Origin: an uncultured bacterium
Lineage (GTDB): Bacteria; Eisenbacteria; RBG-16-71-46
Assembly: GCA_964542745.1 (NCBI GenBank)
Contig: CAZIVR010000002.1
Location: 27,300 to 91,299, forward strand
Direction: 5' to 3'
Length of the DNA: 64,000 nt
In this document: piece by piece, positions 38,278-54,374 of the stretch
Layout: each line of letters starts with the position of its first letter
Numbering within the stretch: position 1 is the stretch's first letter
The notes under the pieces: generated by a model
Databases searched by the model: none
What the model saw: only the letters and a program-made list of their open reading frames with translations
Told to the model about the DNA's origin: nothing
Position numbers and translations under genes: made by a program

Positions 38278-40383
38278 TCAGGCTCCGGCCGCCCGCCGCA
38301 TCCACACCGCCGCGAGCGGCGGCAGCGTGAGCACGACGCTCTGCGGGAAGCCGTGCCACTCGACGGGCTCGGTTTCGAGCGCGCCGTTGCCGACGCCCGA
38401 GCCGCCGAACTCCTGCGAGTCGGTGTTGACGATTTCCTCGTAGCGGCCGGGGGCCGGAACGCCGATCCGGTAGCCGTGCCGCGGCACCGGCGTGTAGTTG
38501 TTGACCGCCACGACGAAGTCGGAGCGATCCTTCGCGTAGCGAACGTAGGCGAGCACGCTCTGCTCGACGTCGCGGAAGTCCACCCACTGGAAGCCGTCGC
38601 TCTCGAAGTCGCGCTCGTGGAGGGGCGGAAGCGAGCGCACCAGCCCGTTCAGCGTTCCCACCAGCCGCCGCATCCCGGCGTGGGGCGCGTGCTCGAGCAG
38701 GTCCCAGTCGAGGGCGCGCGTCTCGCTCCACTCGCGCCACTGGGCGAACTCGCCTCCCATGAAGAGCAGCTTCTTCCCCGGGTGCGCCGACAGGTGCGCG
38801 TGGAGCAGGCGCAGCGTGGCGAAGCGCTGCCAGCGGTCGCCGGGCATCTTGGCGACCAGCGCGGCCTTGCCGTGCACCACCTCGTCGTGCGAGAGGGGCA
38901 GCAGCCAGCGCTCCTGCCACGCGTACCAGATCGAGAACGTGATGCGGTCCTGGTTGAAGCGCCGGAACAGGGGATCGAGCCCGAGGTAGTCGAGGTTGTC
39001 GTGCATCCACCCGAGGTTCCACTTGAGGTCGAACCCGAGGCCGCCGAGGTGGGTGGGCCGCGTCACGCCGGGCCACGACGTGGACTCCTCGGCGAAGGTG
39101 ACCACCCCGGGGTAGCGCTCGTGCACCATCGCGTTCATCGCGCGCAGGAACTCGACGGCCTCGAGGTTCTCCACCCCGCCGTACCGGTTCGGCACCCACT
39201 CGCCCTCGCCGCGCGCGTAGTTCAGGTAGAGCATCGAGGCCACCGCGTCCACCCGCAGGCCGTCCACGTGGAAGTGCTCGATCCAGTAGGCGGCGCTCGA
39301 CAGCAGGAAGTCGGCGACCTGCGGGCGGCCGTAGTTGAAGATCAGCGTGCCCCACTCCTGGTGCTCGCCCTGGCGCGGGTCGGCGTGCTCGTAGAGGTGC
39401 GTGCCGTCGAAGGCCGCGAGGCCGTGCGCGTCGCGCGGGAAGTGCGCGGGCACCCAGTCGAGGATCACGCCGAGGCCCGCCGCGTGGGCACGGTCCACGA
39501 ACTCCCGGAAGCCGTCGGGGCCGCCGAAGCGCGAGGTGGGCGCGAAGTAGCCGATGGTCTGGTAGCCCCACGACTGGTCGAGCGGGTGCTCGGTCACGGG
39601 CAGCAGCTCGAGGTGCGTGTAGCCGAGTCCGGCGGCGTAGGGGATGAGCTGGTCGGCCAGTTCGCCCCAGGTGAGGAAGCGCCCCGGCTCTCCGGGCGCG
39701 TCCGGCGCCCCGCGCTTCCACGAGCCCGGGTGGACCTCGTAGATCAGCATCGGCCGGTCGGGCGCCTGCCGCGCGGCGCGGTCGCGCATCCACTCGCCGT
39801 CGGTCCACGCGTACCCCGCGAGCGGCGCGACCCGCGAGGCGGTGTCGGGCCGGAGCTCGGAGGAAAATCCGACCGGGTCGCACTTGTCGCGAACGAGGCC
39901 CCGCCAGCCCTCGACGTGGAACTTGTAGAGCGCGCCGGCGGAGGCGCCCGGCACGAACGTCTCCCACACCCCGTGGGGATCGCGCTTCGCCATCGGGTGG
40001 GCGCCGGCGCGCCAGCGGTTGAAGCTTCCGATGACGGACACCGACCGCGCGTTCGGGGCCCACACCGCGAAGCGCACGCCGGCCTCGCCCCCGTGCGTGA
40101 CCGGGTGCGCGCCGAGGATCTCCCAGAGCCTTCGGTGCTCGCCGCGCGTGAAGCGCGCGAATTCGGCGTCGGGAACGCGCGCGCCGTGGTCGGGGAGCGG
40201 ATGCGGGAGCGGCGCGGGCGTGGTTCGCTTCGCGGCCCGCGGTTTCGCGGCCTTCGGCCCCGCCGCGGCGCGTTTCCCCGGCTCGGGCTTCGCGGCGGCG
40301 CCGTTCCCGTCCGGGCGGGCCGCCGCCGCGCGCTTTGCCGCCTTCGGTTTGGCGGTCGCGCGCGGGGCCCGGGGCTTCTCCAT
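38278..40383 (-). CDS. glgB: 1,4-alpha-glucan branching enzyme with N-terminal Lys/Ala/Pro-rich extension
   Basis: GH13 branching-enzyme blocks are present (GYTHLELLPVTEHP, GLRVDAVASMLY, FAEESTSWPGVT). The ATG sits 2 nt after the stop of the upstream ATP-grasp gene. The first ~65 aa read AKPKAAKRAAAARPDGNGAAAKPEPGKRAAAGPKAAKPRAAKR. Confidence 0.85.
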   Translation of the reverse strand: MEKPRAPRATAKPKAAKRAAAARPDGNGAAAKPEPGKRAAAGPKAAKPRAAKRTTPAPLPHPLPDHGARVPDAEFARFTRGEHRRLWEILGAHPVTHGGEAGVRFAVWAPNARSVSVIGSFNRWRAGAHPMAKRDPHGVWETFVPGASAGALYKFHVEGWRGLVRDKCDPVGFSSELRPDTASRVAPLAGYAWTDGEWMRDRAARQAPDRPMLIYEVHPGSWKRGAPDAPGEPGRFLTWGELADQLIPYAAGLGYTHLELLPVTEHPLDQSWGYQTIGYFAPTSRFGGPDGFREFVDRAHAAGLGVILDWVPAHFPRDAHGLAAFDGTHLYEHADPRQGEHQEWGTLIFNYGRPQVADFLLSSAAYWIEHFHVDGLRVDAVASMLYLNYARGEGEWVPNRYGGVENLEAVEFLRAMNAMVHERYPGVVTFAEESTSWPGVTRPTHLGGLGFDLKWNLGWMHDNLDYLGLDPLFRRFNQDRITFSIWYAWQERWLLPLSHDEVVHGKAALVAKMPGDRWQRFATLRLLHAHLSAHPGKKLLFMGGEFAQWREWSETRALDWDLLEHAPHAGMRRLVGTLNGLVRSLPPLHERDFESDGFQWVDFRDVEQSVLAYVRYAKDRSDFVVAVNNYTPVPRHGYRIGVPAPGRYEEIVNTDSQEFGGSGVGNGALETEPVEWHGFPQSVVLTLPPLAAVWMRRAAGA

Positions 40384-40385
40384 CG

Positions 40386-53305: not shown

Positions 53306-53360
53306 GGCGCGCGGCGGCGGTTCCGGGGAGCCGGCCCACGGCAAGCGGGAGCGCGCGCGG

Positions 53361-54374
53361 GTGAACGCGCGCGAGGGCGCGACCGGCGCCGAGCCCGGCC
53401 TCGAGGCGGCGCCCCCCCGGGTGGTGGCGCGCCTGCGCGGCGGGGCGGCGGGCCCGACCCTGATCGTGATCGGGGGCCTGCACGGCAACGAGCCCGCGGG
53501 CCTCGAGGGCGCCGGCCGCGCGCTCGAGGCGCTGGCGCGGGCCGGCGGGCTCGCGCGCGGCGACCTGTGGGTGCTGTCGGGGAACCGCCGGGCGCTCGCC
53601 CGCGGCACGCGGTTCGTGCAGCGCGACCTCAACCGCCAGTGGAGCGCCGGGCGCCTCGCCGAGCTGCGCGCGGCGGCCGCGAACCCCGCGGTGGTGCTCG
53701 GCCCCGAGGACCGCGAGCAGCTCGAGCTGGGCGAGGCGCTCGACGCCGCGCTCGCCGGCGCGCGCGGGCGCGTGTTCGTGGTGGACCTCCACACCACCTC
53801 GGCCGAGGGCATCCCGTTCGTGCTGATCGGGGACCACCTCCGGCACCGCGGCTTCGCGCTCGGCTTCCCGCTGCCGCTGCTGCTCGGCCTGTTCGGCCAG
53901 CTCGGCGGAACGCTCACCGAATACCTGAGCGAGCGGCGCTGCGTGACGCTCGCGGTCGAGGGCGGCCAGCACGCGAGCCCGCGCGCGGTCGCGAACCACG
54001 AGGCGGTGGTGTCGGTGGCGCTGGCGGCGGCCGGGCTGGTGCCGGAGGCGGCGCTCCCGGCGATCGTCCCGTCCCGCGACCGGCTCGCCGCGACCTGGCC
54101 GAACCTGCCGCGGGCGCTGCGCGTCCACCACCGCCACGCCATCACCGCGGAGGACCGCTTCGTCATGGAGCCGGGCTTCGCGAACGTGCAGCGCGTGCGC
54201 TCGGGCACGCTGCTCGCGCGCGACGCGCGGGGCGAGATCCGCGCGCGCGGCGACGCGGTGCTGGTGATGCCGCTCTACCAGAAGATGGGCGACGACGGAT
54301 TCTTCCTCGGCCGCGAGATCCCCTCGCTCGTGTTCCGGCTCGGGGCCTGGCTGGGGAGCCTGTGGCGGGGCTGA
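53361..54374 (+). CDS. Succinylglutamate desuccinylase/aspartoacylase (AstE/AspA) family zinc hydrolase
   Basis: IVIGGLHGNEPAG metal-binding motif, plus the DLNRQW and DLHTT blocks typical of the AstE_AspA family. Confidence 0.65.
   Translation: MNAREGATGAEPGLEAAPPRVVARLRGGAAGPTLIVIGGLHGNEPAGLEGAGRALEALARAGGLARGDLWVLSGNRRALARGTRFVQRDLNRQWSAGRLAELRAAAANPAVVLGPEDREQLELGEALDAALAGARGRVFVVDLHTTSAEGIPFVLIGDHLRHRGFALGFPLPLLLGLFGQLGGTLTEYLSERRCVTLAVEGGQHASPRAVANHEAVVSVALAAAGLVPEAALPAIVPSRDRLAATWPNLPRALRVHHRHAITAEDRFVMEPGFANVQRVRSGTLLARDARGEIRARGDAVLVMPLYQKMGDDGFFLGREIPSLVFRLGAWLGSLWRG

Follow-up and report, generated by a model that had tools for sequence, protein, structure and literature searches.

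A conserved cassette of ATP-grasp ligases, hydrolases and glycogen genes in Eisenbacteria and other bacterial phyla

To our knowledge, the reserve materials of bacteria are few, i.e. glycogen, polyhydroxyalkanoates, polyphosphate, cyanophycin and lipids. The cyanophycin system (CphA1 and CphB) joins ATP-grasp ligation with an S51-fold hydrolase; its product is cytoplasmic and its layout is of the storage type, with enzymes that make the material and enzymes that break it. Other ATP-grasp enzymes, the L-amino-acid ligases (LALs), are found singly in antibiotic or dipeptide gene clusters and are poorly conserved. The DNA analyzed here is a 64,000 nt stretch (the window) from an uncultured bacterium of the Eisenbacteria lineage RBG-16-71-46 (GenBank assembly GCA_964542745.1, contig CAZIVR010000002.1, positions 27,300–91,299 of the forward strand), with a G+C content of 71–78%. 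Window positions 38278–54374 are one conserved, co-inherited ligase-hydrolase cassette that adjoins and includes glycogen genes. The reading proposed for it, which is tentative and somewhat short of probable, is a make-and-break cycle in the cytoplasm: a reserve or protective material derived from amino acids, with amide as well as ester bonds, would be built and degraded in a manner coupled to glycogen.

In the window the cassette displays glgB, AG1, AG2, glgA, AG3, S51L, Est1, AG4, Est2, GCS2-CBS and an AstE/AspA-like gene, in this order. AG1–AG4 are ATP-grasp proteins, S51L is a hydrolase with the cyanophycinase/peptidase-E fold and Est1 and Est2 are putative esterases. Genes were called by third-codon-position GC frame bias and checked with Pfam and NCBIfam, and every element in the gene list of the initial annotation, made from the sequence without database searches, was reproduced at its coordinates. 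The cassette resembles the cyanophycin system in that it encodes ATP-grasp ligation and an S51-fold hydrolase, and in a storage-system layout, since synthetic and hydrolytic enzymes share one operon; a cytoplasmic product would also be in common. However, the N-domain and the Mur-ligase M-domain of CphA1 have no counterpart. No Mur-ligase domain is present anywhere in the cassette, as the initial annotation had noted, and AG1–3 consist of about 405 aa of ATP-grasp only. In place of one large synthetase there are three separate LAL-type ligases plus AG4. S51L differs by a 90 aa helical hairpin insertion and by a canonical His that is not conserved, and the cassette includes two esterases and the glycogen genes in addition.

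The gene set and order of the cassette are conserved across phyla. A profile of AG3, the most conserved of the three paralogous ligases, was scanned against one genome per species and at least 586 species were confirmed. Partner genes were located by tblastn of the window proteins against 84 independent loci, and the cassette gene set and order recur around AG3 in these loci, which represent more than 10 phyla. The 80 best loci are from Myxococcota, Planctomycetota, Acidobacteriota, Gemmatimonadota, Actinomycetota (including Acidimicrobiia), Chloroflexota and Dormibacterota, Eisenbacteria, Binatia, Krumholzibacteria and Gammaproteobacteria, and their AG3 sequences are 65–77% identical to the window copy. 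Gene frequencies were counted in the 46 loci that have full 10-kb flanks. Est1 (89%) and Est2 (80%) are the most constant partners of AG3, followed by AG1 and AG2 (76% each), S51L (74%), AG4 (67%) and glgA (46%), then by GCS2-CBS (30%), AstE (15%) and glgB (5 of 46, or 11%). Apart from variants in some lineages, the gene order is mostly preserved. All 11 genes are seen together in Eisenbacteria, Binatia and some Planctomycetota. Among Actinomycetota other than Acidimicrobiia, most display AG1-AG2 and AG3-S51L-Est1-Est2 without glgA or AG4, and in Gammaproteobacteria the cassette order is rearranged. Clustering of all open reading frames of at least 90 aa shows no other family in more than 7 of the 84 loci, thus the cassette has no transporter, regulator, precursor peptide or tailoring enzyme. 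Full-text literature searches found no published description of the cassette, although an earlier in-silico mention may exist; the initial annotation had likewise matched it to no described pathway.

Each of the encoded proteins comes from a broad, common superfamily, which would be in keeping with a chance adjacency of unrelated housekeeping or secondary-metabolite genes beside glycogen genes. This explanation is refuted by synteny and retains practically no probability, as the gene set and order recur in the 84 loci from more than 10 phyla. In addition, no housekeeping equivalog cut-off is reached, and no siderophore, phosphonate, nonribosomal peptide synthetase or exporter genes and no precursor genes of ribosomally synthesized and post-translationally modified peptides (RiPPs) are present. 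The unit is conserved across genomes; its ligases are not ordinary housekeeping enzymes scattered elsewhere, and the refuting condition named in the initial annotation therefore does not apply.

AG3 at about 70% identity is also seen without other cassette genes, in L013, L023, L025 (Sandaracinaceae), L010, L011, L021, L052 and L066, where the flanking DNA covered 10 kb on each side in some loci and a few kb in others. The cassette genes of these genomes may be divided between separate places, or AG3 may function there independently of the partners seen elsewhere. Apparent Rosetta-stone fusions (AG4-Est2 and S51L-Est1) were also considered and are mostly tblastn alignment artefacts that run across stop codons. 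Three stop-free fusion cases are unreliable alone. At least two of them (L029 and L031) are from a single series of metagenome-assembled genomes (MFD isolates), believed to be nanopore-assembled, and frameshift errors are common in nanopore assemblies.

The start/stop couplings described in the initial annotation are all present. The AG1 stop codon is followed after 2 nt by the ATG of glgB, a translational coupling, and GTGA start/stop overlaps are found at glgA/AG3, AG3/S51L and AG4/Est2. The GTG start of AG3 overlaps the glgA stop codon, with GGAGG situated 7–11 nt upstream of AG3; similarly, the GTG start of Est2 overlaps the AG4 stop codon, and GGAGG-type ribosome-binding sites lie ahead of both AG3 and Est2. 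The borders of the cassette are clear. On the upstream side a lipoprotein-like open reading frame (36100–38271, plus strand) is without homologues in the 84 related loci, and on the downstream side a cytochrome P450 gene (54436–55716), used as a tblastn query, has no match in any of them. No signal peptide or membrane segment is predicted in any cassette protein, and all look cytoplasmic. Together with the lack of a recurring transporter, this indicates that the product would stay in the cell.

AG1 (40386–41603, minus strand), AG2 (42880–44100, minus strand) and AG3 (45686–46909, plus strand) encode proteins of 405, 406 and 407 aa that are about 32–37% identical to each other, which agrees with the three paralogous ligases of about 405 aa proposed initially. 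The N-termini are MNVLYL in AG1, MPNVIF in AG2 and MNVILI in AG3. AG1 matches the Pfam families ATP-grasp_4, ATPgrasp_N and ATP-grasp and reaches no NCBIfam cut-off; its motifs KP..GAGS, THMEW and GEI..R..G are kept in 42 orthologues. AG2 matches ATP-grasp (30.8 bits) and weakly LAL_C2, and keeps H.EWF and E...RPPGA in 47 orthologues. Of the 407 residues of AG3, 147 are shared by at least 95% of the 85 sequences compared. A comparison of the AG3 profile with PDB gives RizA (1.6e-17), BacD (1.4e-11) and BL00235 (2.4e-11), and the AG3 motifs H-M-E-W and E-I-G-C-R-P-P-G align with those of the three enzymes and have conserved equivalents in AG1 and AG2. By sequence, AG1–3 thus belong to the L-amino-acid-ligase branch of the ATP-grasp superfamily and their catalytic motifs are intact.

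The LALs RizA, BacD/YwfE and BL00235 are the closest solved relatives of AG1–3, with which they share H-x-E and E-I-x-x-R-x-x-G, although the ATPgrasp_N and LAL_C2 matches are weak. Unlike the known LALs, AG1–3 travel together, with 65–77% identity across phyla in the case of AG3, and tailoring, resistance and export genes do not recur near them. An LAL cluster for a phosphonopeptide or an antibiotic, with the S51 protein as resistance peptidase, was rejected: genes for a phosphoenolpyruvate mutase, an exporter or tailoring enzymes are lacking, and such a cluster would not be conserved this strongly. Housekeeping and other known identities of the ATP-grasp proteins (Ddl, PurK, PurT, PurD, AccC, CarB, LysX, RimK, CphA, BacD and PylC) were rejected too, all being far below curated cut-offs. 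Examples of the scores are 41 bits against a cut-off of 243 for Ddl, 26 against 318 for PurK, 36 against 143 for RimK and 34 against 276 for LysX; those of AG1–3 for the cyanophycin synthetase model TIGR02068 are 29–42 bits and for the BacD equivalog 25–39 bits, both against a cut-off of 850. The profile check suggested in the initial annotation, taken over all the ATP-grasp proteins, thus reaches no curated cut-off for CphA, RimK, Ddl, PurK, PurT, LysX or BacD. Thousands of AG3 homologues at 68–100% identity are named only "ATPase" or "ATP-grasp". At E-values of 1e-30 or lower, AG3 matches only 258 representative clusters (50% identity) among 1.8 billion proteins, and the family is therefore tight and strongly constrained. 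A search of a plasmid collection shows only relatives at 26–27% identity.

AG4 (49166–50626, plus strand) encodes a 486 aa protein that is a very divergent RimK/synapsin-like ATP-grasp. It matches no Pfam family and scores 20.8 bits with TIGR00768, where the cut-off is 143. The best fold match is RimK, as expected from the initial description of a fourth, RimK/GshB-like ATP-grasp protein, and LysX/ArgX and tubulin tyrosine ligase-like proteins (TTLLs) are also among the fold matches. Going by fold alone, AG4 may have kinase instead of ligase activity. What sets AG4 apart from RimK, LysX/ArgX and synapsin is an additional helical domain at the C-terminus, together with a basic disordered tail rich in Ala, Pro, Lys and Arg. 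The tail (50384–50626) recurs with variable length in L001, L005, L007, L009 and L024.

The fold matches of AG4 raise the question of reversible peptide tagging of a protein, e.g. a glycogen enzyme or a ribosomal protein, in the manner of RimK with S6 or of TTLL with CCP, the hydrolases acting as erasers. AstE-like proteins share the zinc-carboxypeptidase-like fold of tag-removing enzymes, and the very high conservation would fit a macromolecular substrate. We consider this very unlikely. The LysW-like carrier gene or S6-like target gene of the RimK and LysX/ArgX systems has no counterpart, no conserved target or carrier gene being present in the cassette, and between its genes there is too little space for a small open reading frame. 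Four to five ligases and three hydrolases far exceed the needs of known tagging systems, and AstE is present in only 15% of the loci.

Gaps between the recurring genes are 109 bp or less, which leaves no room for a small open reading frame. The sole larger gap (433 bp, positions 41603–42036) is beside an insertion of a DUF7450 gene and is found only in this window. The DUF7450 gene (42036–42827, plus strand) encodes a signal peptide and is inside the span of the cassette, between AG1 and AG2, but outside the cassette proper; it is missing from that position in L001 and has no tblastn match in any of the 84 loci. No precursor-peptide family recurs in the 84 loci in a screen that covered only open reading frames of at least 90 aa. 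A graspetide or other RiPP system was rejected, as there is no precursor open reading frame and AG1–3, being of the LAL type, are the wrong type of ligase.

S51L (46906–47847, plus strand) encodes a 313 aa protein with the S51 fold. The nearest structures are cyanophycinase (3en0) and pseudo-CphB (7uqv). The S51L sequence displays a two-helix hairpin insertion of 90 aa at about residues 63–152 and a nucleophile at Ser209 (WSAGAM). The S51 peptidase of the initial annotation is thus upheld by fold and nearest structures; however, the PF03575 score of 23.8 bits is slightly below the gathering score of 23.9, and the canonical His is not conserved. Across 56 loci the nucleophile is Ser, with Cys in four Polyangia (L015, L017, L026 and L074) and Ala only in L073. 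The Ser/Cys exchange is as expected of covalent catalysis. The canonical His position, 251, is H, D, Q, E, A, V, R, S or G across loci, whereas the pair His223-Asp224 and several Arg residues are near-invariant. This conservation pattern points to an active S51L that works by covalent catalysis, with a catalytic set other than the canonical one. Seven Acidimicrobiia loci (L016, L029, L033, L042, L055, L057 and L076) have AG4 and GCS2-CBS and show no S51L by tblastn (E-value 1e-10, query coverage of at least 40%). In those organisms S51L may be dispensable or replaced.

The cyanophycinase-like structures may also be explained by a free, cyanophycin-like polyamide granule that is made by ATP-grasp enzymes only and degraded by S51L, without a link to glucan. 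The glycogen genes would then serve carbon storage under shared regulation and no more, and the esterases would be of secondary importance. In favour of this, an acidic substrate is suggested by the conserved Arg residues of S51L, N-acyl-Asp/Glu compounds are the substrates of the AstE-like deacylase family, and the basic disordered tails of AG4 could bind a polyanion. Such a granule appears quite unlikely, however. It leaves the two esterases unexplained, which are more constant partners of AG3 than S51L is, and the lack of a conserved canonical His in S51L, the TIGR02068 scores of 29–42 bits against 850 and the lack of a Mur-ligase domain also count against it.

Est1 (47894–49057, plus strand) encodes a 387 aa Fes-like alpha/beta-hydrolase with an E-set/Ig-like N-domain. 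The PF00756 score is 79.5 bits (gathering score 22) and the best PDB matches are Fes (2b20, 2e-12, and 3mga), followed by ferulic acid esterases. The motifs G.S.G, HDG and D.H.W are conserved in 59 sequences. Est2 (50623–51354, plus strand) encodes a small PF00756 alpha/beta-hydrolase of 243 aa with a score of 37.5 bits against 22, and its G.SIGA and H.W..WR motifs are conserved in 53 sequences. Both proteins are thus PF00756 members and keep the GxSxG Ser and the C-terminal His motif. The two PF00756 proteins of the initial annotation stand, but the "CBM48-like" label for the N-domain of Est1 finds little support. Among 13 members this domain matches Enterochelin_N in 12, CBM_20 weakly in 8 (best E-value 0.0026) and CBM_48 in 3 (0.018).

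The closest characterized relative of Est1 is enterochelin esterase, an enzyme that cleaves aminoacyl O-ester bonds; the NF007758 score of Est1, 97 bits, does not reach the cut-off of 222. Est1 shares the Ig-like/E-set N-domain and a PF00756 Ser-Asp-His hydrolase with Fes/IroD and with those CE1 feruloyl esterases that have an N-terminal CBM48. It differs in having no secretion signal, and no siderophore synthesis or uptake genes recur in the loci. A siderophore cluster, as might be suspected from a Fes-like protein, was rejected because no synthetase, receptor or exporter recurs in the loci. Since no other genes accompany AG3 as constantly as these two esterases, ester bonds probably have a central place. 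The "amide-ligase" framing of the initial annotation therefore appears to give ester chemistry too little weight.

glgB (38278–40383, minus strand) encodes a 701 aa branching enzyme that scores 941.2 bits with the NF003811 equivalog (cut-off 741) and displays the Pfam domains CBM_48, Alpha-amylase and Alpha-amylase_C. glgA (44208–45689, plus strand), which opens a run of eight plus-strand genes, encodes a 493 aa glycogen synthase of the ADP-glucose type, with 520.5 bits for TIGR02095 (cut-off 328.45), an E-value of 1e-70 for Glyco_transf_5 and KTGGL and EPCGL motifs that align to E. coli GlgA. Judged by these matches, GlgA and GlgB are genuine glycogen enzymes. The N-terminus of GlgB (40174–40383) is a 70 aa extension rich in Ala, Lys and Pro, found where relatives have the N1 domain. 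This extension and the AG4 tail presumably resemble the histone-H1-like tails of granule-associated proteins. Of the genes in glgBXCAP clusters the cassette shares genuine GlgA and GlgB; Pfam scans show no glgC, glgP or glgX in the cassette or elsewhere in the window.

The interleaving with glycogen genes claimed in the initial annotation is genuine and coupled in the window, but glgA and glgB are found in only 46% and 11% of the full-flank loci. glgA adjoins AG3 in three arrangements, i.e. overlapping upstream, divergent and rearranged. Cluster-linked GlgA proteins from different phyla have a median identity of 51% to each other compared with 38% to E. coli GlgA, and the gammaproteobacterial GlgA of Woeseiaceae shares 56% identity with the window copy and 38% with the E. 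coli enzyme. These sequence identities, in a comparison that used one outgroup (E. coli), suggest a GlgA subfamily that travels with the cassette across phyla.

GCS2-CBS (51398–53305, plus strand) encodes a 635 aa protein consisting of a GCS2-type carboxylate-amine ligase and a C-terminal CBS pair. The Pfam scores are 39.3 bits against 21 for GCS2 and 99.5 against 24 for CBS (1.3e-28, two stretches), and the EgtA equivalog is not reached (22.6 against 370.8 bits). The AstE/AspA-like gene (53361–54374, plus strand), the last of the cassette, encodes a 337 aa protein resembling zinc deacylases. It has 46.7 bits against 25 for PF24827 (AstE_AspA_cat) and does not reach the AstE and aspartoacylase equivalogs (35.6 against 180 and 28.3 against 306 bits).

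As GCS2 is the glutamate-cysteine ligase family, and osmolyte- and energy-regulated proteins often carry CBS domains, a single, defined small peptide metabolite has to be weighed, e.g. a glutathione-like thiol, a cofactor or an osmolyte with stepwise synthesis and turnover. AG1, AG2, AG3, AG4 and GCS2 would each add one residue in fixed order, like the Mur ligases, the hydrolases would recycle or proofread, and the esterases would be thioesterases like S-formylglutathione hydrolase, a PF00756 member. Three co-occurring paralogues with distinct conserved pockets, the homology of the AG proteins to L-amino-acid ligases, which make small peptides, and a conservation at the level of primary metabolism (65–77% across phyla) would all be in accord with it. 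However, GCS2 is found in only 30% of the loci, three core hydrolases seem too many for one small molecule, and no transporter or stress regulator is linked. The co-inherited glgA and glgB and the cyanophycinase-like fold of S51L are also left unexplained. A small peptide metabolite is, on balance, unlikely.

The make-and-break cycle coupled to glycogen, the reading tentatively preferred above, takes up the glycogen genes as well as the esterases. AG1–3 and AG4 would each use ATP to convert a carboxylate to an acyl-phosphate, which would then be joined to an amine to give an amide bond or to a hydroxyl to give an ester bond. Ester formation has precedents among ATP-grasp enzymes, i.e. the VanA-type D-Ala-D-Lac ligases and the graspetide ligases. 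The combined action of AG1–4 would give an oligomer or polymer in which acidic amino acids are most likely abundant, as indicated by the cyanophycinase fold of S51L and its conserved Arg residues and by the N-acyl-Asp/Glu deacylase family of the AstE-like protein. Where present, GlgA and GlgB would make branched alpha-glucan in the same transcriptional programme, so that the material would be made together with glycogen, probably on its surface or beside it, and possibly attached to it. Est1 and Est2 would cleave the ester bonds of the product, S51L would cleave amide-linked units and the AstE-like deacylase would finish the N-acyl-Asp/Glu remnants. The CBS pair of the GCS2 ligase would tie one ligation to adenylate or energy status. 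Every substrate in this scheme is putative, as are the polymeric nature of the product and its physical link to the glucan. The poly-amino-acid or decorated alpha-glucan of the initial annotation is putative to the same degree, and so are Asp, Arg and Glu as substrates. The presence of four to five ligases and three to four hydrolases in one cytoplasmic unit without export fits a cycle of this kind better than it would fit a secreted natural product. Also in favour of the cycle are the recurrence of the cassette across phyla, the structural closeness of S51L to cyanophycinases and its Ser/Cys exchange, the conserved esterase triads and ATP-grasp motifs, the relation of Est1 to enterochelin esterase, the genuine glgA and glgB with their translational coupling to AG3 and AG1, and the coherent subfamily of cluster-linked GlgA proteins. 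In the N-domain of Est1, Lys95 is present in all 32 glgA-linked loci but in 18 of the 27 without glgA, and a Trp or Leu occupies position 106 in all 32 of the former and in 15 of the latter; the two positions would correspond to the glycogen-contacting Lys and Trp of AMPK beta CBM48.

Several observations weigh against the cycle. The characterized L-amino-acid ligases mostly make dipeptides, not polymers, and no CphA-like primer-binding or Mur-ligase module is present. S51L is without a conserved canonical His, and PF00756 enzymes can also be thioesterases or acyltransferases. glgA is inside the cassette in under half of the loci and glgB rarely, and the high identity across phyla could partly reflect horizontal transfer. 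The N-domain of Est1 shows no significant relation to the CBM48 of GlgB by hhalign (E-value 0.047, probability 1%). The correlation of Lys95 and position 106 with glgA linkage is confounded by phylogeny.

A scan of the 38–55 kb region for sigma-70-like promoters shows a sole match (1 found, 0.3 expected), TTGCCA-18-TAGACT at positions 44112–44141 of the minus strand, which is a consensus match only. It lies between the divergently oriented AG2 and glgA, which are 107 bp apart, and at 12 nt ahead of the start codon (ATG) of AG2 it implies a very short leader. An Rfam search of the window shows no match and thus gives no riboswitch clue to a ligand.

Other open reading frames are found outside of the cassette. 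A 935 aa TPR-CHAT protein (33311–36118, minus strand) adjoins the lipoprotein-like open reading frame, which has a lipobox (LASCGG) and no Pfam family. About 25–35 kb upstream of the cassette, positions 770–15779 contain a run of nitrogen-assimilation and redox genes, i.e. a FAD/4Fe-4S oxidase, a type III glutamine synthetase, an aminotransferase and an NrfH/NrfA-type cytochrome c nitrite reductase. This run includes an open reading frame of 2197 aa (5878–12471, plus strand) where Pfam sees only Glu_synthase at residues 757–1059, with about 1900 residues having no family. Positions 22657–24843 (plus strand) encode an endonuclease I of the secreted type to which a lamin-tail and a FlgD-Ig-like domain are fused, and positions 58822–60189 (minus strand) a 455 aa protein with a partial match to TLC ATP/ADP transporters (E-value 3e-11, C-terminal part only).

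The cassette is present in at least 586 species and its enzymes equal central-metabolism genes in their degree of conservation, yet they are without an assigned function. Two of them, AG4 with no Pfam family and S51L with an altered active site, represent families with essentially no annotation. A further step, which is doubtful but deserves to be stated, is that the product of the cassette is a new kind of biopolymer inside the cell, one that would be widespread among bacteria of soil, sediment and water. In one candidate form, amino acids or short peptides would be ester-linked to glycogen, i.e. a nitrogen store grafted onto a carbon store. In the other, a free poly(amide-ester) of amino acids would be built by stand-alone ATP-grasp ligases alone. 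Either form would be mobilized by the cyanophycinase-fold hydrolase and the two Fes-like esterases. Should the product be a new nitrogen or carbon-nitrogen storage material, or a new peptide metabolite of ubiquitous occurrence, models of the physiology of abundant but little-studied soil and sediment phyla would change, and biocatalysis would gain new stand-alone ligases that form peptides or esters.

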